Origin: a phage
Reading direction: 5' to 3' (one strand)
NCBI GenBank assembly: GCA_026066175.1
Contig: GCA_026066175.1_4721.1
DNA: 64,000 nucleotides
Shown piece by piece: positions 1,801-41,296 of this stretch (position 1 is the stretch's first letter; every line of letters starts with the position of its first letter). The position numbers and the translations under genes are program-made. The notes under the pieces were generated by a model, which searched no databases, was not told where the DNA came from, and was given only the letters and a program-made list of their open reading frames with translations.

Positions 1801-2349
1801 TTACATTACGCGGACAGCGAATTCAAGGACGTATACGTCATCGGCGTCCATTGGGTTTGTGGTCGAATAACCAATGAAACAATACCCCATCGCTGAAACG
1901 AAATCTTCGAGTTTATCAATGCTATTTGCGAGAATGCGATCATCGATGCTCAAACGGCATTTACGCGTTATTTTGTTACCGCGCGGTACGGCGGATAACA
2001 AACACATGAAATGCGTGATGCGGTTGTTATGGATAAACTGCGAATAGACATCAGAAGGATTGAGACTCCCCATAACGTCCTGAATGTGTGCACGACGTCC
2101 AGGTGATACATATTCCGAGTATGCGAATGTCGCTACCGTACGACGATCTTCAGTGAAATACGTATTACCTTCAGGGTGGTAGCTCTCCACGGTTCCATCT
2201 TCGCGGGCGACGGTTACGATAGGTGCACCGTATTCGTCACGGCTGAAATCAACTTTGCATTTATCCGTGAGTGGTAGTATCGTGCACGGCTTCGCGGTGT
2301 TCTCATCCGGGAGATCATAACCACTCATCATTTTCAAGAACATAGACAT
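1801..2349 (-). CDS. Hypothetical protein, paralog of 2436..2975
   Basis: ATG with GAGGT Shine-Dalgarno. Shares the MS(M/V)(F/I)(L/V)KMM N-terminus, a KP(C/F)T(I/L) block and TVAT(F/Y)AYS with the neighbouring ORF. Confidence 0.5.
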   Translation of the reverse strand: MSMFLKMMSGYDLPDENTAKPCTILPLTDKCKVDFSRDEYGAPIVTVAREDGTVESYHPEGNTYFTEDRRTVATFAYSEYVSPGRRAHIQDVMGSLNPSDVYSQFIHNNRITHFMCLLSAVPRGNKITRKCRLSIDDRILANSIDKLEDFVSAMGYCFIGYSTTNPMDADDVYVLEFAVRVM

Positions 2350-2401
2350 AATAGAACCTCATGGTAATAGAAGATAGAGTTAATAGATACTACAACAGAT
2401 T

Positions 2402-2425
2402 GAGGGGGTATTATCCCACCCCCTC
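2402..2425. terminator. GC-rich hairpin (gagggggt / accccctc)
   Basis: Inverted repeat in the intergenic gap between the two paralogous genes. Confidence 0.4.
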
Positions 2426-2435
2426 GCAGGGATTA

Positions 2436-2975
2436 TTACTTCTTATAAGGCGTGACTCTAAAGACACCCTCATTCTGATCATAAACAACCACGAACTGTC
2501 CGGCGAATAGATGACGGAGTAATGAGTCGATATTGTTTATAAATTGACTGTCATTTATCTGTACAAAATCGATTACGCGATCTCGCTTCAAACTACGATC
2601 GATTAAGCGTATTTCAAGCAACGCCATGATAAGTTTATCGTTAAGATATCCGCCTGCCTCCAAGGCTTTTCCATAACTGACGTTTTTGATATCAGCACGC
2701 ATACGCTCGACGTCTACCATGGGGAAACCGCAAGAATACGCATATGTTGCGACAGTGTTACCGTTATCCATCACGTAGACGTTACCGCCGGGATAATCGA
2801 TAAAACGTTGGGTTTTGTCACCATGAACAGCGATTTCTAACGTCGGTTTACCCATCGAATTGCGGTTGAATTCGATGGTCGTCAAGCGATCCGGCACCAC
2901 ATGCAGTGTAAACGGTTTCGAGTTGTTTTGATCGCTGGTATCGCAGTTGCCCATCATTTTTACAATAACACTCAT
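2436..2975 (-). CDS. Hypothetical protein, paralog of 1801..2349
   Basis: ATG at 2975 preceded by TAAGGAG; shared sequence blocks with the 1801..2349 product. Confidence 0.5.
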   Translation of the reverse strand: MSVIVKMMGNCDTSDQNNSKPFTLHVVPDRLTTIEFNRNSMGKPTLEIAVHGDKTQRFIDYPGGNVYVMDNGNTVATYAYSCGFPMVDVERMRADIKNVSYGKALEAGGYLNDKLIMALLEIRLIDRSLKRDRVIDFVQINDSQFINNIDSLLRHLFAGQFVVVYDQNEGVFRVTPYKK

Positions 2976-3050
2976 GTTTAACTCCTTAGTAGTCCTAGTA
3001 GTAGTTAATGAGGGAGTTCACCTCATCAGATAACCTATACTGGTAAGATC

Positions 3051-3362
3051 TTACCGAAACGTTACGTGAAATGAAACAATGTAACCTTCTGGTTTGTCAG
3101 CCTTATATCGAGTACAGAAATAACCAAACTTCGTTAGGAATTCACACAACGCATCGGCCTGATATAACGGTATACGGTCGTCATCGAGTAACGAGCATTG
3201 ATGTGTAATCTTCTCCGAAGGATCGACACGACACAAATAAAGAAGGAATCCTACTATAGCCTGATTACTCGTAAAGTTGTCGAACTCGTCTTTGGCTTTA
3301 AACTCTTTAATGGACGTTAGCGTTTTCGTCAATCGCTCACGATCAAGCATGTTAACCTCCAT
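3051..3362 (-). CDS. Hypothetical protein (103 aa)
   Basis: ORF on the gene strand, flanked by hairpins. Confidence 0.4.
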   Translation of the reverse strand: MEVNMLDRERLTKTLTSIKEFKAKDEFDNFTSNQAIVGFLLYLCRVDPSEKITHQCSLLDDDRIPLYQADALCEFLTKFGYFCTRYKADKPEGYIVSFHVTFR

Positions 3363-3372
3363 ACAAACATAA

Positions 3373-3404
3373 CCCTCCTCCTTCCCTTACGGGTTGGAGG
3401 AGGG
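3373..3404. terminator. GC-rich hairpin (ccctcctcc / ggaggaggg)
   Basis: Inverted repeat between 3415..3729 and 3051..3362. Confidence 0.45.
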
Positions 3405-3414
3405 GATTATGCTG

Positions 3415-3729
3415 TTATTCTGTTTTAGGTGACGAACCGTTCTTCTTGAAGTCGGATTCGTATTTCACATTAGAATCGAGAACCTCACGAACGGTTTTAT
3501 CTGTACAACCGCGGGCGATATACGCGTTCAAATCGTCACGCAATTTACGCATCGTTGTTTTATCCACATCAGAAACATCTGACTTGGTAAGACGGAATGC
3601 AATCGCATCACGAATTTTATTCAACGTTGCTGGATTATTACGCTGCTCTGCAAATACCGCTTTGATGAAGGTACCGCTGTCTTTCGAAGCAACGGCAGCA
3701 TCAAGAATCTCAATATGCTTTTCAGACAT
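3415..3729 (-). CDS. Hypothetical protein (104 aa)
   Basis: ORF on the gene strand. Confidence 0.4.
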   Translation of the reverse strand: MSEKHIEILDAAVASKDSGTFIKAVFAEQRNNPATLNKIRDAIAFRLTKSDVSDVDKTTMRKLRDDLNAYIARGCTDKTVREVLDSNVKYESDFKKNGSSPKTE

Positions 3730-3780
3730 TTTCTTTCCTTTAATAAACGATCATCGTCATATTCATTGCGCAGGATACCG

Positions 3781-5094
3781 TCACTTAGACACCGCCATGC
3801 TTCGCGCTAACGCAACGTCGTACGCATCCATGATTGCGTCGCCGATAGCAGTATGACGAATCAACGGAATACCTACGTCTGGATACTCTTTGGTACCCAT
3901 GATCGATACCGGTTTGTCCTGATAGGCTGCGATCATCGAACGAATGTCCTGAACCTGGTTGTATCGGCAGATGGGTTTAAAGCCTGCTTTACGGAACCAA
4001 TACTCTAATTGAGGCCAATCGGTTTCACCGCGGGCAAGATAATAGAAGGTATCTTTACCGTAGTATTCTGTCATTTTGTCACGAATATTGTTAACGAACG
4101 CATTGACTTCAGCAATGGCTTCTTTATAGCCCATTACCTTACCATGCTGGAAACAATAATCACGTGCTTCTTTCGGTGCTTTGGTTTGCCACCACTCTAC
4201 CGTTGATTCGCTGATACGACCACCGTCAGCGATTTGACCGTGCACGTCAGGGAAGACATCAATACGCGGACCGTTAACGATGGATTCTGGATTAGCCAGA
4301 TCGAAGAACACGATACCGATTTCTAACAACACCCCGTTCTTTTCCAGACTAAGGTTCTCAACATCCAAACAGAATGCAGGCTTCTCTACCGCTAATGGCT
4401 CGAATGAATGGTTGCTGGTATCCGACTCAGCTTCGAGTTCGGTGGCGTCCAGATCGGTATCCGCAGGTTTCAGTTCTAATACAGCATTATCAAGCCCGGT
4501 TAACGAAAAATAGTCTTCGAAGAAATCGGGTACCGTCATGCCATGCAAATCGATACCACAATCTTCCATCCATTGTTTAAACTGGCACTCATCGACATCG
4601 ATCGCTAAACGGCATGGTCCGTAACGATTATCCAATGACGCATCAATCCAGAAGAAAGTGCGTATAAGTAAGTAAGGATTATGCTCCGCGATGATTTCTT
4701 GGCTAGCGTGAGCATCATACACCATTACCTGTATTATTTCCTTACGTGTGTTATACGGATCAACCATCAATCGCCGCACGACTTCTCCCAGGTATTCCAG
4801 CGCACGTGTGTACACGGTAGATCCAACTTGTCCGTACGCGCTTATACCCGTCAATAGTTCCTTATAAGACGCGTCTGAAAGCGAAGACGATAGCACACGC
4901 GCCAGCTCGGCATTGTATATACTGCATGATTTCTTCGGGGCGATAGCATCATGTAACGCTTTAATAAACGCTGGTCCATCAATATCAAACAACCATCCTT
5001 GGCGTCGGTGGGCGGTATATCGTAATAACGCACCGATAGCTGCCTGGGGTGGTGTATATTCTTTTTCGTTAATTTCAAACAGTAGTTCGCTCAT
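3781..5094 (-). CDS. Protein with a C-terminal DnaQ-like DEDDh 3'-5' exonuclease domain
   Basis: Motifs LDVENLSL (Exo I, D-x-E) and HTAIGDAIMDAYD (Exo III, H-x-A-x-x-D-A) in the translated ORF. Confidence 0.5.
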   Translation of the reverse strand: MSELLFEINEKEYTPPQAAIGALLRYTAHRRQGWLFDIDGPAFIKALHDAIAPKKSCSIYNAELARVLSSSLSDASYKELLTGISAYGQVGSTVYTRALEYLGEVVRRLMVDPYNTRKEIIQVMVYDAHASQEIIAEHNPYLLIRTFFWIDASLDNRYGPCRLAIDVDECQFKQWMEDCGIDLHGMTVPDFFEDYFSLTGLDNAVLELKPADTDLDATELEAESDTSNHSFEPLAVEKPAFCLDVENLSLEKNGVLLEIGIVFFDLANPESIVNGPRIDVFPDVHGQIADGGRISESTVEWWQTKAPKEARDYCFQHGKVMGYKEAIAEVNAFVNNIRDKMTEYYGKDTFYYLARGETDWPQLEYWFRKAGFKPICRYNQVQDIRSMIAAYQDKPVSIMGTKEYPDVGIPLIRHTAIGDAIMDAYDVALARSMAVSK

Positions 5095-5110
5095 TTTAAC
5101 ACCTTTTTTG

Positions 5111-5446
5111 TTATTCTGGTTTATCTGCTGACAGACCGAGACCCGCCAGTATTACGTAGTCGTACCACGCTTTTACTTTTGCTTTCGCGTCATCTAAACT
5201 GAATTCGGTGACGTAAGGAAATTCGCCGTTGACTTGGAAAGGCAGCTCGCAGGTGTAGCCGGTATGATCCTTCCAACCTTTCCATTCGATAATCAGAAGA
5301 CCAAAAACAGTCTCAGCGGTAACATGATTGTAGCGGCACGCTTCGTTTGGCGGATATTCTTCCGACCAGGTAATCTCCTGCTGTGCTAAAAGCTGTTGTA
5401 CGACCGCTAACGGTTGTTCCTCATTAAGTTCGATACTATCGATCAT
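5111..5446 (-). CDS. Hypothetical protein (111 aa)
   Basis: ORF on the gene strand; 4-nt overlap with the upstream gene. Confidence 0.4.
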   Translation of the reverse strand: MIDSIELNEEQPLAVVQQLLAQQEITWSEEYPPNEACRYNHVTAETVFGLLIIEWKGWKDHTGYTCELPFQVNGEFPYVTEFSLDDAKAKVKAWYDYVILAGLGLSADKPE

Positions 5447-6039
5447 CGGATACCCTCTTTCTCTTTATCGTAATCACTGCAAACATTAACGAATGCCGTA
5501 TTGCTGGATAGCACACTTACCATCTTACGGATTGCATCCAGCGGTTCAAGTTTAGGATCAATTAACGCACCGGTCAACACGCTGATTGCTCGTGCGATCT
5601 CAGCCAAATTAACATTTGGGTCTTTGTCGTCAATAATGAGCAAACTCTTTGCTGACTTCCGGCGACGCTTGACGATCAACAAGAACGTAATCAGGTTCTC
5701 ACGCCACGCATCAGAATCCAGATTACGTATCAGGGTTAATGCCCGACGTTCTTCTGCCCAGGATGGTTTCTCACGGATCACCGGCATGTAAGCTAATTGT
5801 TCGGCAAGTCCTTTCAGACTGACGCGGTTGGTCCCACCAGGATGTTCGCTGATCCTCAACATCTCGGTTAATATACGCACATATGCGGTTGTTGTTGATA
5901 CGCCACGTAGCGGCAAGAACAAATTATGTCCTGGAACACCATCATGGCTCAACGGTGCGATATAAGTCATGAACCAGCGAATATCATCGTCGGTTTGTTC
6001 TCCAACGACGAATGTAAACGCCTCACGTAAAACACTCAC
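5443..6039 (-). CDS. Hypothetical protein (198 aa)
   Basis: ORF on the gene strand. Confidence 0.4.
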   Translation of the reverse strand: MSVLREAFTFVVGEQTDDDIRWFMTYIAPLSHDGVPGHNLFLPLRGVSTTTAYVRILTEMLRISEHPGGTNRVSLKGLAEQLAYMPVIREKPSWAEERRALTLIRNLDSDAWRENLITFLLIVKRRRKSAKSLLIIDDKDPNVNLAEIARAISVLTGALIDPKLEPLDAIRKMVSVLSSNTAFVNVCSDYDKEKEGIR

Positions 6040-36390: not shown

Positions 36391-36412
36391 AGCCATTGGT
36401 TGTCTTCGCCGG

Positions 36413-37051
36413 TTAGCCTAATTTACCTCCGGCGATGTTCGTGAAGTCTTCACCATCAGGGACCTGCAACAGAATACGTGCCATGTCCCAGTTGGTCAAT
36501 GTGATTGCTTTATCATCGATACTCAGTTCTGGTAGGTCGAGCTCATGATCATCGAACTCGTAGGAAATGCTCCATGTTTCATCAGTTTTAGGATCAGTTA
36601 TCAGCACACCGTCTGTTACACGCATGTAATCAGGGTGCAGCTCATTACTGAACGTGCTGAACGGATCGGTGTAACATTCAGCATAACCCTCGATCTGCTG
36701 ACGCTGTGCCTTCGTACGTAACTCAGGACACGCCATGATCAGCTGTCGGGAAATGCCGTTAGCCGCTCGGAAATCTTCCACGGTGATGCACGGCATCACC
36801 ACATCGTCATGGAAGATATTCTCCGACTGTCTCAACAAGGTCTTACGAAGTTCAGTATAGTTGATCTGATTGAACGTATCGAATGTTGCTAACGATTCCG
36901 CGTAAAAATGCTTTACGTGTTCGTTTGCGCCACCGAGACTGTTCATCAGCTTATGACCATACTCCATAAAGCTTTTATCGAGCCCAGTATTCATTTCTCC
37001 GAACCGTAGTGCACGATAGCTGTCTCGTCCACCTGTAAATATTTGCGCCAT
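36413..37051 (-). CDS. Hypothetical protein (212 aa)
   Basis: Immediately downstream of the beta-prime gene; N-terminus TGGRDSYRALRFGEM...FMEYG loosely recalls the beta GGQRFGEME...EAYG block. Confidence 0.4.
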   Translation of the reverse strand: MAQIFTGGRDSYRALRFGEMNTGLDKSFMEYGHKLMNSLGGANEHVKHFYAESLATFDTFNQINYTELRKTLLRQSENIFHDDVVMPCITVEDFRAANGISRQLIMACPELRTKAQRQQIEGYAECYTDPFSTFSNELHPDYMRVTDGVLITDPKTDETWSISYEFDDHELDLPELSIDDKAITLTNWDMARILLQVPDGEDFTNIAGGKLG

Positions 37052-37066
37052 TACAGGCGTCCTCCT

Positions 37067-37304
37067 TTAGCATTGGTTATTGATTGCTTCTATTTCATCG
37101 ATATACGGTTCTACGTCATCGCCCTCCACGAATTCGTTGAACCAACAGTCAATCGTTGAGATAACCGGTGACTGATGTTCACATTTCTTAGATACCTTAA
37201 ACGGAACGTTGTTATCCATCATACCGAGTTCGGGTCGGAATCGCCCGAAATGTTTCGCAGTCCAAATGTCTGGGACGATATGGTTGTTCATAGCGTCTCC
37301 GTCG
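37067..37304 (-). CDS. RNA polymerase beta-prime N-terminal subunit, exon 3
   Basis: Frame is open upstream of the track ATG back to the proposed 3' splice site; the exon begins c-gac-gga-gac (xDGD) and continues AMNNHIVP...LGMMDNN, which aligns with beta-prime DGDQMAVHVP...LMMSTNN. Confidence 0.6.
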
Positions 37305-37683
37305 CTGTTTGTCGACTATATCTTCATCTTCATTGCGAAGAGACTCTCGTTTGGGTTTGTGTTTAACAAAGCCTACTCTACTCAACATCGCGTCTTTCGA
37401 TAGTCTGTGAGCACACATCTTAACGAATATTCGTGGGTTCCTACAGACAGGTGAATATTCTTGTTGAGATGCTTCGCTGCGGATTATTCCCGTCCTACCT
37501 CTTTTACCATACCCAGTTCATTACGCTGGCCCTCATCGATGTCACCATGATGAGTTGGTGTGTAGTCCGATTACAGAAACTTCCCGTCAATTAGAGAGTT
37601 TTAACTATGCTCCTGTTACCAGGAACCAGATCCCGACGGCATCAATAAATCAACGTAAGTTATTGATTTAATTGAAAAAACTG
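37305..37683 (-). ncRNA. Group I intron 2 (about 379 nt)
   Basis: Minus-strand core elements AAUUGACGGGAAG (P), AAUAAUCCGCAGCG (Q), GCUCACAGACUAUCG (R) and GAAGAUAUAGUCG (S). Preceding exon ends in U, intron ends in G, and an internal GAUCUG can pair with exon CAGAUU. Confidence 0.6.
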
Positions 37684-37702
37684 AAATCTGCATTATCTAA
37701 AC
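37684..37702 (-). CDS. RNA polymerase beta-prime, 19-nt mini-exon (exon 2)
   Basis: gtttagataatgcagattt supplies (C)LDNADF when joined to the flanking exons. Confidence 0.55.
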
Positions 37703-38071
37703 CTTCGATATGGTTCGCTACGCCATACCCGCACATACGTGCAGCTTACGTCTTTCACGTAAGAAGAGACTATATCTTTCACCCTCAGCTTTACCTGTTA
37801 GGGGCTCCCATTTCGGCGGTCGTTTGACCGGTGGTTTCCCACGCCGCTTGGCCCTAACGCCCGTAAGCGATAGTCGTTGAGCACATCTCCGTTCTGGAGA
37901 CTTCGCTGCGGATTCCCCAATCCTTACTGCTTTTACCGTACCTGAATGATTAGTTCAGCCCCATGCTCTGTTCCCAGGCATGGTTGGTGAGCAAGGCTCT
38001 AAGTAGGTTCCCGCTATTAGAGAGTTCCTCGTGATAGCATTACTGTGTCACTGGGCCTAATGACCCTTTCA
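37703..38071 (-). ncRNA. Group I intron 1 (about 369 nt)
   Basis: Minus-strand core elements AAUAGCGGGAAC (P), GGAAUCCGCAGCG (Q), GCUCAACGACUAUCG (R) and GAAAGAUAUAGUC (S). Proposed P1 pairs exon AUGAUCU with GGGUCAU across a UGAAA loop; intron ends in G. Confidence 0.55.
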
Positions 38072-39305
38072 AGATCATCACGCTTAACCCGATGGTATTA
38101 TCCTGCGGGTCGCGTTTAACCTTGGTGATTTCAAGACATTGGTTACTGCTACGGTCAAGTGATGGATTTCGAACAAAGCCACACACAATCCCATCGAACG
38201 GTGTATCAGCAATAAGCTCGTCATGCAGCTCGCTCATCATCGGATGATAATTGCGGACATGCTCTGCAACGAACGCACGGGCTGCTCTTGGTGAATAACC
38301 ACGATGGAATAACTTGGATTGGATATGTTCTTTATTGGTTAGTGTAAATGGTGCGTACGGAAAATGCAGATGATAATAACGATGGTTTGCTGTTATCGAA
38401 CTGATGACCGTACGTGTGGTGAATGGATGTAATGTACCTAATATGTTCTTACGTGTGATCCCTTTCTTCTTACCAATGAACTCATCGAAAATCGCCGAGT
38501 GATACTGCAACAGCTTCAATTGCACTTTCGCCATCCAGTTTTCTTTCTTTCTGGCGCTTAGTGGCGTGGTTGGATGATAGATGCTATTCAATGTTCCGAT
38601 GGCGTCTATCGCACCTTCCATTTTGCTGTCAGCGTAACGTCCTGTTGGCGTGTTCTCGATCACGAACATCATGGCTGCAGGAAAGCTGATGTACTGACTG
38701 AAGAATTTATCCCGATGAATACGGATGAATTCGCGTAGCGTATCAACCTTCTCCATGTTCTTCGGTCCACGTAGTGTTGGGCCTTTATACAAGATCTCCA
38801 TGATACGATCGAAGTTCTGTATAAAGCTATTTATACCGCGTCGTATTCCGAATACATCGAATTGCTGTTCCAGATAGTTCTTAAGTTCGATCGGTCGTTT
38901 TACGTTCGGACGGTAACTGGCATCAATGAGCCACGTCATCGTTTCAAAGCTTTTGATATTCAACTCGCTTGCCAGCACGAGATGGACCAACGGGTTAATG
39001 AACGCATCGATACCTTCCGGTACGCGCGCCCAGACCGTTGAACGAATCTCTTGTTCTGCTGGATAAGTGACAACCGTTTTACAGTTCGGGCACACCGTCC
39101 CTAATAACTCACCGCGATTATAGAAACCACAACCGCATTGCGGGGTGATATCCAAGGTATCGCTAGAGTAAACACGGGTGATGAAACTGTTTAATTTCTT
39201 CTTCTCTTCCACGACCTTCGTATCATAATCGTTCAACAATATCGGCGTAAAAGGAAGTTCTGCGAGCTGTCTATCGAAACTGACGATATCGAGCATGATG
39301 GCCAT
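38072..39305 (-). CDS. RNA polymerase beta-prime N-terminal subunit, exon 1
   Basis: N-terminal zinc-binding CGCGFYNRGELLGTVCPNC and RNPSLDRSSNQCLE matching beta-prime RQPTLHRLGIQAFE. The track ORF continues to a stop at 38040 through intron sequence (LKGSLGPVTQ). Confidence 0.6.
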
Positions 39306-39347
39306 GGGGTATCTCCTGCAAATGAAAAAGAACGTTAGGACGTATAA

Positions 39348-39371
39348 GGGAGGGAGGTTGCCCTCCCTCCC
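39348..39371. terminator. GC-rich hairpin (gggagggagg / cctccctccc)
   Basis: Immediately downstream of the stop of the 39398..41296 gene. Confidence 0.5.
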
Positions 39372-39397
39372 GTCAGTTTACATCGAACGTTCTTCCA

Positions 39398-41296
39398 TTA
39401 GAACAGGTTGAATGCCCCGCCCATGCCGTTACCGCCCACATTCGGACGATCGTTACGTGCGTAGATGTTACCGCTGATGGTACCCAGACCACGAGCACGT
39501 GCTGCCATGTTACCACGAACAGCGGTACCTGCCAGATGCTGGATGTTCTCAGGACGGATGGTGAAGCCTGCTTCAGCAGCCGCTTCAATCAGTGCCTGCA
39601 GCGCCAGCGGATCGAAATCATAACGCATCGCCCAGCCAGTTTGTTCCCAGCTACCAGACAGAACGCGGTCGATGATTTCGTGACGAGCAACCACACGCTG
39701 AGACATCGACATATCGGTACGGTCGAAGCTGTCTTCCCAAGCTTCTACGGTATCCGGGTTAGTGATGTTCATCATGTACAGATCGTCCATATCACGAATA
39801 TCGTGACGGTTACCGTCCTGGTGGTTGTAGTGACCCAGCGGGATACGGTTACCGGTCGCGTAGACCAGCGGTGAGCCGTACGGATATTTCTTGCTGAAGC
39901 AACCCAGGGTAACATCATCGAACGCACGGAAGAGGGCTTTGTAGCCTTCGGAGTATTCCTGTACGTCCCCTTCAACATTACCCGAGAAGATCTTCTCAGC
40001 CGCCGGGATCATACGCAGCAGCCAGCTGTACTCACCTTCTTCTGGTACGTCGATAGAGATCAGCAGAGACGGATACAGAACCTGTTGCAGGAACTTGTAA
40101 ATCTGCTCGTTGGTTTGCGTAGACAGATCCAGCGGTGCAGTCACTTCAGGATCCAGCACCATCGCCAGAGCACCTGGGTTATGCGGACCAATACCACGAG
40201 CTGCGTTGCTGATTAAAGACTGCGCCCACGCCATGCCGCTGTTCAGCGTAGCGATGGTACCAATCAGACCCAGCACGAAGCTGTTCGGCGTGAACGCATC
40301 CAGTTCCAGCGGATACATGCTGGTCATTACGTAGCGCGGTTGGTACTGTACAGTTGGCGGTACCGGATAACCGTTAACCAGAACAGGACCTTGCTGGAAG
40401 GTCGGGTTCTGCGGGCTGTAGGTCAGATCGATATAACCGGTGGATGCAACCAGACGCTGCTGGCTATCGTAATCGCCCATCGCTTGACGGATGCGGTTAG
40501 AGATAGTTACAGTAATGTCGGAGCGTACCGGGTTACCCGCGATATCGCTATCCTGCATGCCGCTGGTGTTATACTGAACGCTACTGATCGGCTGATCGCT
40601 TGCCATCATACCCAGGTTGAACTGAGGCAGGCCCAGTCTGTCAGCAAAACGCATTTCGGTTGCCGTCTGGATCGCGTTATCCGCTGCGGAAAGCAGGGTG
40701 GTTGCCAGATGCGCAGATTCAGCAGTGATTTCATTGGTCACAACAGCCAGACCAGCGATACGTACCGTACCGTTAGCTTTACCACCGATAGCCGCATACA
40801 TCGCTGCCATGACTTCGTTGATGAACGTGCCGTTCAGGTTATCCACCCAAGTACATGGTACCAGGATGTTACCGTGAGGACCACGTTCTTCACGACGTGG
40901 CAGCGGAGCCAGGCCAGCAACCAGCGGAAGGACGTAACCGAAGAAGTGGTTATGATCACCCACTTTTACACCGCTCATCACAACCAGAGTCGGATACGGT
41001 ACGCTGTACTGATTCGGGTCAACCGCAACAAAGATGAAGTCGTCTTTGAACTGGGTATCTTCCAGATATTTCTCCATCAGACGACGGAGATTCAGTACCT
41101 GCTCGGAGCCGGTATTACGGCTGATACGACGGCTCAGTGTACGGTTAATCGTACGCATCGTATGAGTTACTTTAGGACGGTCAGCAAAATCTGCAGCGGT
41201 TTCGACCGCCTCGTTAGCATGCTGCGCCGTGCGGGTTTCAGCCACGCGGATGTCTACGTTATCGTTACCGTTATTGTTACGTACGTCTAAGCCCAT
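39398..41296 (-). CDS. Candidate chimallin-like phage nucleus shell protein (632 aa); major capsid protein not excluded
   Basis: Size of about 70 kDa, high-expression-like codon choice, its own promoter motif and terminator, and proximity to a PhuZ-like tubulin and phage RNA polymerase genes. Confidence 0.45.
   Translation of the reverse strand: MGLDVRNNNGNDNVDIRVAETRTAQHANEAVETAADFADRPKVTHTMRTINRTLSRRISRNTGSEQVLNLRRLMEKYLEDTQFKDDFIFVAVDPNQYSVPYPTLVVMSGVKVGDHNHFFGYVLPLVAGLAPLPRREERGPHGNILVPCTWVDNLNGTFINEVMAAMYAAIGGKANGTVRIAGLAVVTNEITAESAHLATTLLSAADNAIQTATEMRFADRLGLPQFNLGMMASDQPISSVQYNTSGMQDSDIAGNPVRSDITVTISNRIRQAMGDYDSQQRLVASTGYIDLTYSPQNPTFQQGPVLVNGYPVPPTVQYQPRYVMTSMYPLELDAFTPNSFVLGLIGTIATLNSGMAWAQSLISNAARGIGPHNPGALAMVLDPEVTAPLDLSTQTNEQIYKFLQQVLYPSLLISIDVPEEGEYSWLLRMIPAAEKIFSGNVEGDVQEYSEGYKALFRAFDDVTLGCFSKKYPYGSPLVYATGNRIPLGHYNHQDGNRHDIRDMDDLYMMNITNPDTVEAWEDSFDRTDMSMSQRVVARHEIIDRVLSGSWEQTGWAMRYDFDPLALQALIEAAAEAGFTIRPENIQHLAGTAVRGNMAARARGLGTISGNIYARNDRPNVGGNGMGGAFNLF

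Follow-up and report, generated by a model that had tools for sequence, protein, structure and literature searches.

Two predicted endonuclease-free group I introns in the catalytic loop of the RNA polymerase beta' gene of a Goslar-like jumbo phage

It is well established that introns target the conserved codons of active sites, and phage Twort is reported to carry three group I introns in orf142 and two in nrdE. Group I introns bearing HNH endonucleases are already documented in the polymerase genes of chimalliviruses. In PhiPA3, a putative group I intron interrupts the gene for the beta subunit of the virion RNA polymerase and encodes gp210, an HNH endonuclease, and a competition and immunity framework has been put forward for such intron endonucleases (Birkholz et al. 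2024, PMC11620839); the polymerase-gene introns of chimalliviruses and their HNH endonucleases are also covered by a review (PMC12908238), and intron mobility has been discussed as a source of the split polymerase genes of jumbo phages (PMC7598289). Our literature search found no paper linking the NADFDGD motif with group I introns. Here, we analysed a stretch of phage DNA of 64,000 nucleotides (nt) (GenBank assembly GCA_026066175.1, contig GCA_026066175.1_4721.1; hereafter the window), in which the gene for the beta' N-terminal subunit of the non-virion RNA polymerase very probably carries two independent, endonuclease-free, self-splicing group I introns, probably of IA type, in its catalytic loop, in a jumbo phage resembling Escherichia phage vB_EcoM_Goslar (Goslar).

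The PhiPA3 gp210 intron resembles this locus in that a chimallivirus polymerase gene is cut at invariant catalytic residues by an HNH-associated group I intron; however, it concerns the virion polymerase, the beta subunit and another site, and is one endonuclease-encoding intron, whereas the window has two introns that encode none. The second window intron (intron 2) has an orthologue that is already annotated, namely Goslar Intron_gpI (NC_048170, 169269-169645; gp186). This orthologue is inserted at the identical point in the F codon (UU|C), is 92% identical across the ribozyme and has the same P1-loop hairpin, but it contains a 1062-nt module, a 336-amino-acid (aa) HNH/NUMOD1 open reading frame (ORF) on a P9 stem of 12 base pairs (bp), which the window does not have. 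Furthermore, Goslar lacks the first window intron (intron 1) and has a different one, intron B, 13 nt downstream of intron 2. Twort is like the window in having several self-splicing IA-type introns close together in one phage gene, though in other genes and another host; the internal exon of the window is 13 nt long and lies inside the catalytic motif. The DNA polymerase introns of the SPO1/SP82/Bastille type, with I-HmuI-like nicking HNH enzymes, are among the closest relatives of both window introns, but they occur in Gram-positive phages and other host genes; the introns of SIOphi score 37-61 bits against the window intron profiles and have the three-way extension of P5 in common with them. 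Among Bastillevirinae introns, 32 of 45 carry an endonuclease (PMC11878797), and T4-type introns with no ORF or a defunct one are mobilised in trans by collaborative homing (mobE and I-TevIII; PMC2790892; reviewed in PMC3984707).

The predicted structure of the window gene is as follows.

38063..39305, minus strand: exon 1 of the gene for the non-virion RNA polymerase beta' N-terminal subunit, ending AAA GGG U
37697..38062, minus strand: intron 1, group I, 366 nt, no ORF; 5' splice site after U38063, terminal G at 37697
37684..37696, minus strand: micro-exon 2, 13 nt, AUAAUGCAGAUUU; completes the Y codon, encodes N-A-D and begins the F codon
37305..37683, minus strand: intron 2, group I, 379 nt, no ORF, no P9; 5' splice site after U37684, terminal G at 37305
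37067..37304, minus strand: exon 3, starting C GAC GGA GAC GCU AUG = (F)DGDAM... and running to the stop codon; phrog_2987 profile positions 426-475

Read without splicing, the same gene appears as two ORFs, and the intron region is the interval between them on the minus strand.

38040..39305, minus strand: 421-aa ORF matching phrog_2987 ('RNA polymerase beta subunit') at profile positions 1-414 of 478
37067..37291, minus strand: 74-aa ORF, ATG-initiated, matching phrog_2987 at profile positions 426-475

Joining 39305..38063, 37696..37684 and 37304..37067 yields an in-frame ORF of 1494 nt that encodes 497 aa. This spliced protein gives a continuous match to phrog_2987 positions 1-474 with 446 bits, against 382 and 23.5 bits for the separate fragments, and it aligns to phiKZ gp55 (PDB 7OGP_A, E 8e-75) through both junctions, with 'vmilkgyNADFDGDamnnhivpd' in the window opposite 'vlclkapNADFDGDqlnltlmpd' in phiKZ gp55. 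By this homology, the host gene is that of a phiKZ gp55 homologue, the beta' of the non-virion RNA polymerase, and since the alignment runs through the junctions, the introns are predicted to cut the universal Mg-binding NADFDGD loop of beta'. Intron 1 falls within the Y codon and intron 2 within the F codon (KGY|NADF|DGDAMN). The predicted ligated sequence is AAAGGGU|AUAAUGCAGAUUU|CGACGGAGAC, with the junctions GGGU|AUAAUG and GAUUU|CGACGG, and the junction-spanning peptide of the predicted protein is GYNADFDGDAMNNH. The naive ORF of exon 1 runs eight codons into intron 1 (…GSLGPVTQ*; 38040-38062, with its stop at 38040), and because it reads into the intron, automatic annotation would give the protein a wrong C-terminus.

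The boundaries were set by comparison with Goslar together with the rules for group I introns (a U preceding the 5' splice site and a G closing the intron). The window aligns to Goslar over 38200..38065, until ...AAAGG, and the next aligned block begins at 37696 (ATAATGC...); Goslar itself reads AAA GGT TAT AAT GCC without interruption at this site, and ligation across intron 1 gives AAA GGG U|AU AAU GCA. For intron 2, the beta' motif demands GAU UU|C GAC GGA GAC, which fixes the intron at 37683..37305 and the internal exon at 13 nt. Each window junction is, nucleotide for nucleotide, the uninterrupted sequence of a relative, that is, Goslar for intron 1 and the loci L019 and L013 for intron 2, and the micro-exon is joined without a break to exon 1 in Goslar and to exon 3 in L019. 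An earlier note on this DNA had recognised two separate introns, and the spacer indeed turned out to be a true exon (part of Y-N-A-D-F) that is continuous with a neighbouring exon in Goslar or L019. The span given there, 37305-38071, has the right intron end at 37305, but intron 1 starts at 38062; the size of about 370 to 380 nt holds for intron 2, whereas intron 1 is shorter (366 nt), both being compact as described; and the distance between the introns, put at about 20 nt, is in fact 13 nt (37696..37684). With these corrections the earlier observation stands.

Both introns were detected on the gene strand by the Rfam model of group I introns, RF00028, with full-length alignments (model positions 1-253). 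Intron 2 was matched at 37674..37305 (minus strand) with 49.1 bits (E 4.6e-11 in a 1.6-kb search and 1.8e-9 in the whole window), and intron 1 at 38083..37746 (minus strand) with 27.9 bits (E 1.1e-4 and 4.3e-3, respectively). At these E-value thresholds, RF00028 found no further group I match in the 64 kb, and an Rfam scan of the whole window at the curated gathering cut-off (50 bits) gave zero matches. The core blocks quoted earlier as near-identical in the two introns are present as quoted, on the minus strand: block P is CUCUCUAAUAGCGGGAA in intron 1 and CUCUCUAAUUGACGGGAA in intron 2, block Q is AAUCCGCAGCGAAG in both, and block R is GUGCUCAACGACUAUCG and GUGCUCACAGACUAUCG, respectively; block S is AAGAUAUAGUC in both. 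The GC content is 51.6% in intron 1 and 42.2% in intron 2.

Structure models were built from exon complementarity (P1 and P10), from the conserved core (P3, P4, P7 and P8) and, for the rest, from domain-wise folding, which replaced constrained folding of whole introns after the latter had produced spurious long-range pairs. The P1 helices in the Rfam alignments (an exon-intron hairpin, UGAUGAUCU/GGGUCAUUA, for intron 1 and an AU-rich hairpin for intron 2) were rejected, as they either set the splice site on the wrong strand or take no account of the exon. The following elements are referred to below.

38053..38066, minus strand: P1 of intron 1, exon GGGU (38066..38063) with guide GCCC (38056..38053), 4 bp, 6-nt loop
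37702..37767, minus strand: P9 domain of intron 1, a four-way junction with three hairpins, of which one has the loop GAAAG; P9.1 includes one compensatory pair
37642..37675, minus strand: extra AU-rich hairpin in the P1 loop of intron 2 (intron positions 9-42), 13 pairs, invariant in seven sequences
37627..37639, minus strand: guide sequence of intron 2, CCGUCG (P10) followed directly by GGAUCUG (P1)
37305..37313, minus strand: 3' tail of intron 2 after P7', 9 nt, GACAAACAG; the place where Goslar has the 12-bp stem with the HNH ORF

In both models, the U at -1 pairs with G, the intron ends in G, and helices P3-P8 are present with a P7 of 6 bp. Intron 1 comprises P1, P2, P3-P8, a 60-nt P7.1/P7.2 insert with three hairpins and the four-way P9 domain, and P10 can form between CAUUA in its P1 loop (38062..38058) and the micro-exon bases UAAUG (37695..37691). 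This model has 119 pairs, of which 98.3% are paired and four are compensatory across six orthologous sequences. In intron 2, the guide GGAUCUG pairs with exon CAGAUUU (37690..37684) in a 7-bp P1, and CCGUCG pairs with CGACGG of exon 3 (37304..37299) in P10. Consistent with the earlier description, this guide stands about 50 nt from the 5' splice site across an extra hairpin, namely at intron positions 45-57 behind the P1-loop hairpin, and the 3' tail is short, with 9 nt after P7' (37313..37305), which leaves no P9. The other helices are P2 with a GUAA loop, P3, P4 with a bulged A, P7, P8, the three-way P5 extension and a long P6/P6a, and a 51-nt insert between P7 and P3' forms one clear hairpin with one compensatory pair. 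Intron 2 has 117 pairs, 98.2% of them paired, and across seven orthologues six pairs are changed on both sides, two of them in P1. There, Goslar pairs exon CCGACUU with guide GAGUCGG, so that its synonymous exon changes (GCC GAC for GCA GAU) are offset by changes in the guide, amounting to two double changes. The count of six was reached by none of 500 shuffles, and slid controls gave 0-2. The micro-exon is used twice in these models, with bases 2-6 in P10 of intron 1 and bases 7-13 in P1 of intron 2. Thus P1 to P9/P10 could be placed consistently with the backing of covariation, and on this comparison the two inserts are ribozyme-shaped and under selection for their fold. The nearest relatives of both are phage introns of IA type.

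Several points weigh against the assignment. Both Rfam scores (49.1 and 27.9 bits) are below the curated 50-bit cut-off; the Goslar orthologue of intron 2 is also below it here (46.9 bits), and this cut-off is the detection limit of one generic model, not a biological criterion. P1 of intron 1 has just 4 bp, is invariant in six sequences and has no support from covariation. The z-scores of minimum free energy (-1.85 and -1.36) are undistinctive, the pairing percentages are inflated because the models were derived from the window sequences themselves, and the orthologue sets are small (6-7 sequences at ~92% identity). In addition, intron 2 has no P9 hairpin, and efficient splicing of such a form is a prediction only.

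Neither intron holds an endonuclease ORF, as the earlier note had stated. Every frame on both strands of each intron has at least three stops, the longest open stretch being 78 codons; the seven internal ORFs (33-68 aa) have no significant match in Pfam (best E 0.16, under the cut-off); and tblastn with the HNH proteins of Goslar and L019 found no remnant in the introns and no related HNH gene in the 64-kb window. In sister phages, by contrast, the same elements are armed. Besides the Goslar version of intron 2, intron 1 of the metagenome contig L019 has a 323-aa HNH ORF in its P1 loop, where the 1-kb insert is located between the splice site and the guide GCCC. The proteins of these armed orthologues match HNH_3 and NUMOD/I-HmuI-like domains in Pfam, the class of nicking homing enzymes familiar from SPO1-type phages, and are 27% identical to each other. 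Judged by these orthologues, the two window introns are pared-down versions of elements that in sister phages encode I-HmuI-like HNH endonucleases. The HNH module of Goslar is flanked by a 12-bp inverted repeat, ACGUGCACCGAC/GUCGGUGCACGU.

The distribution of the introns was examined in 12 Goslar-like genomes, the window plus eleven further loci recovered with exon 1 from IMG/VR and metagenome scans. The window is 91.4% identical to Goslar in nucleotides over 36400-39400, and 92% between exon 1 and Goslar gp247; by this similarity, its phage is a close relative of the nucleus-forming jumbo phage Goslar. The polymerase gene lies directly downstream of a gene that belongs to the same setting.

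39398..41296, minus strand: chimallin gene (PF25677, phrog_4795)

Across the 12 genomes there are seven intron configurations over four sites within 27 nt, distributed as follows.

Window: intron 1 and intron 2
L018, L005, L015, L016 and L020: intron 1, intron 2 and B (after GAC GCU), with two 13-nt micro-exons
Goslar (L001, NC_048170): HNH-armed intron 2 and B
L004 (IMGVR_UViG_3300011560_000001): C (after AAC GCU) and B
L013, L014 and L017: C only
L019: HNH-armed intron 1 only

Intron 1 and intron 2 are thus each polymorphic for presence or absence at the same site (7/12 genomes in both cases), with intron 2 missing from L019, L004, L013, L014 and L017, and the comparison with relatives suggested earlier therefore revealed both endonuclease-bearing versions and intron-free sites, although no intron-free genome was found among these 12. 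Exact in-frame restoration was seen at the introns of the 11 other genomes as well. When the phage T2P and LucasX genes are included, six insertion positions fall in 27 nt across chimalliviruses: Pseudomonas phage T2P (L006 1754-2074) has an intron at AAU|GCG (N|A) of the same motif, the 5' end of this intron having a short CDS annotated as 'HNH homing endonuclease', and Xanthomonas phage LucasX (L007 1638-2010) has one at GCU|CCA (A|P), again in this motif. Intron 1 was found in no record of the phage collection searched.

The window and L018 are 99% identical across the 9-kb locus compared and yet differ by a whole intron: the 354-nt intron B is absent from the window at 37292/37291. Just upstream of this site (37548-37295), the two differ by 14 mismatches and one indel in 254 nt, compared with ~1% elsewhere, and several states unique to the window in this segment are compensatory pairs in P7.2 and P8. 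This cluster suggests recent recombination beside the B site. A simple co-conversion tract was considered and set aside, as the states are mosaic.

Introns B and C, which interrupt the motif at D-A|M-N and N-A|D-F, respectively, are paralogous, being 78-86% identical over two blocks (z 39). In L004, C (5252-5601) and B (5620-5976) lie 18 nt apart at sites that share the 5' exon ACGCU, and the occurrence of B/C at two nearby sites suggests ectopic spread. The L004 copy of B (5620-5976) follows GAU GCC, so that the base before the 5' splice site, almost universally U, is here a C that pairs with G in P1; this splice point was chosen because no other preserves ...GDAMN.... Over 40 nt, the 3' end of intron 1 (its P9 domain, 37702-37746) shares ~90% identity with the 3' domain of B/C (L004 5549-5588 and the 3' end of Goslar B), whereas the cores of intron 1 and introns B/C are unrelated, a pattern that suggests modular exchange and mosaic introns.

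A question raised by these findings is whether introns 1 and 2 are paralogues, as the earlier note had proposed in suggesting duplication or repeated insertion of one intron lineage. The pair is homologous (nhmmer E ~1e-9; global alignment z 8.8), as many phage introns are, shares the P/Q/R/S blocks, and has two P5-junction motifs, CACCAAC and GGUAAAAG, which are 52 nt apart in both introns and do not occur verbatim in the other introns sampled; moreover, B and C in L004 indicate that paralogous spread to a nearby site occurs in this very gene. If one intron were a copy of its neighbour re-inserted 13 nt away, the two should be recent paralogues. We compared kinship by nhmmer profiles of each orthologue family and by z-scores of local alignments. 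The profile of the intron 1 family gave 87 bits with Av-05, 71 with PhiPA3 gp065, 61 and 57 with Bacillus SIOphi and 38 with J2-1, but 25 with intron 2; that of the intron 2 family gave 49 with PhiPA3, 37 with SIOphi and 29 with Av-05, against 27 with intron 1. Local alignment z-scores to intron 1 were 23.6 for Av-05, 21.6 for SIOphi and 20.3 for PhiPA3 gp065 compared with 12.4 for intron 2, and those to intron 2 were higher for PhiPA3, J2-1 and SIOphi than for intron 1. Each window intron is thus more like introns of unrelated phages than like its neighbour. The three-way P5 extension, to which the window introns owe their likeness, is common to them and to the introns of PhiPA3, SIOphi and J2-1, and the P5 domain of intron 1 aligns better with those of SIOphi and J2-1, at z 9-10, than with that of intron 2, at z 4.8. 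The shared blocks equal the RF00028 consensus, and the peripheral architectures differ, intron 1 having a minimal P1, P7.1/P7.2 and a four-way P9, and intron 2 a large P1 loop, a long P6a and no P9. The GC content differs too, as do the armed versions, in which dissimilar HNH proteins are encoded in different loops (P1 and P9). Because foreign introns outrank the neighbour, the core is consensus, and architecture, GC content and ORF position differ, local duplication is not supported, nor is repeated insertion of one lineage, and we regard duplication as unlikely. As homologues, the two introns appear to belong to a single wide clade of IA-type phage introns, in which the two P5-junction motifs may mark a distant special relationship, and independent arrival is the better reading.

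Introns of three other phages deserve separate mention. Av-05, an Escherichia phage of the Vequintavirinae, has an unannotated group I intron beside the gene for the terminase large subunit (L009 414-752), which is the closest non-orthologous relative of intron 1 (87 bits; 79-84% identity over ~100 nt); the likeness hints at exchange between unrelated coliphages. PhiPA3 gp065, a phiKZ gp71-like non-virion polymerase subunit, has a 79-bit group I intron (L012 572-865) that is among the closest relatives of both window introns. In Pseudoalteromonas phage J2-1 (L008 408-1357), three tandem RF00028 matches lie within 1 kb, flanked by an unnamed gene and by one for an HNH homing endonuclease, a further case of introns stacked in a phage gene.

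Another possibility is that the ribozymes are dead relics in a naturally split gene, so that nothing is spliced and the subunit consists of two polypeptides. The RefSeq record of Goslar implies as much, since it annotates the subunit (locus 2155-5443) as two CDS (gp247 and the hypothetical gp185) with one Intron_gpI, leaving intron B (locus 2734..2380) unannotated; the polymerase genes of jumbo phages are indeed split into several subunits (PMC7598289), the 74-aa ORF downstream of intron 2 starts with ATG, and the Rfam scores are under the cut-off. However, such a split would leave NADF followed by read-through residues, with DGD untranslated upstream of the ATG, while the ribozyme helices keep their pairing through compensatory changes that include exon-guide pairs, and in-frame restoration is exact at both introns and in the 11 other genomes. 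We hold this explanation to be very improbable. That 38062..37305 is removed as one unit, a composite intron or twintron with a non-exonic spacer, is scarcely credible. In its favour are the short distance between the two cores and the ability of group I ribozymes to skip exons (per the title of Landthaler and Shub 1999, ref. 34 of PMC11878797). Against it, loss of the spacer would delete N-A-D and shift the frame, 13 nt being no whole number of codons; the spacer has been conserved as codons and adjoins exon 1 in Goslar and exon 3 in L019; the window junctions match uninterrupted sites in relatives; each intron is found alone in some genome; and each has its own P1, P10 and terminal G.

For the two separate introns, whose boundaries, in-frame restoration, covarying fold, lack of ORFs and polymorphism were obtained directly, we infer splicing, mobility and immunity as follows. 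Each ribozyme would fold on the pre-mRNA, an external guanosine bound in P7 would attack the phosphate after the U of the P1 U.G pair, and, with the terminal G docked and P10 aligning the next exon, the exons would be ligated, according to the established mechanism of guanosine-initiated, two-step self-splicing (PMC3984707). With both reactions done, the 13-nt micro-exon, having served as P10 partner for intron 1 and P1 partner for intron 2, would join exons 1 and 3 to give the 497-aa protein with an intact NADFDGD. The two introns would have arrived separately and, with no endonuclease of their own, could spread only by ordinary recombination or through the endonuclease of a co-infecting relative. 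In this respect they are like the T4-type introns, which persist with no working endonuclease, can be moved by an enzyme encoded elsewhere and protect the site by their insertion; a difference is that the 64-kb window has no free-standing endonuclease related to the HNH proteins, so a trans-acting enzyme would have to come from a co-infecting relative. As the homing site is split once an intron sits in it, the window allele is probably protected by its unarmed introns from the HNH endonucleases of relatives. Both trans-mobilisation and immunity are inferred here by analogy with the general biology of homing endonucleases.

At the level of annotation, the introns fall under the Rfam cut-off, and ordinary gene calling consequently truncates this essential polymerase subunit at 421 aa and leaves a 74-aa orphan; the truncation problem is seen in the Goslar RefSeq record, and exact splice sites lead to the correct 497-aa protein. 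Beyond this, a tentative and rather doubtful reading is that the 27-nt catalytic-loop stretch is a battleground of co-infecting Goslar-like phages. HNH-armed introns would attack alleles with empty sites, while unarmed introns would persist as shields that split the target; successive rounds would have stacked up to three introns with two 13-nt micro-exons between them; the B/C lineage would have jumped between two sites sharing the 5' exon ACGCU; and endonuclease modules would enter and leave the ribozymes as discrete cassettes. The separation of transcription and translation in nucleus-forming phages might relax the cost of many introns in one essential early gene.

The window locus is an instructive example and no new type of element, and what is noteworthy is the hot spot at the level of the population. 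With four insertion sites in 27 nt among the Goslar-like phages, six when chimalliviruses at large are counted, and with armed and unarmed versions of the same introns, it amounts to a compact natural experiment. With the culturable Goslar as a partner, the locus would be suited to testing the role of intron endonucleases in the competition between nucleus-forming phages, and the protection conferred by unarmed introns would be testable there as well, as proposed for PhiPA3 and phiKZ.

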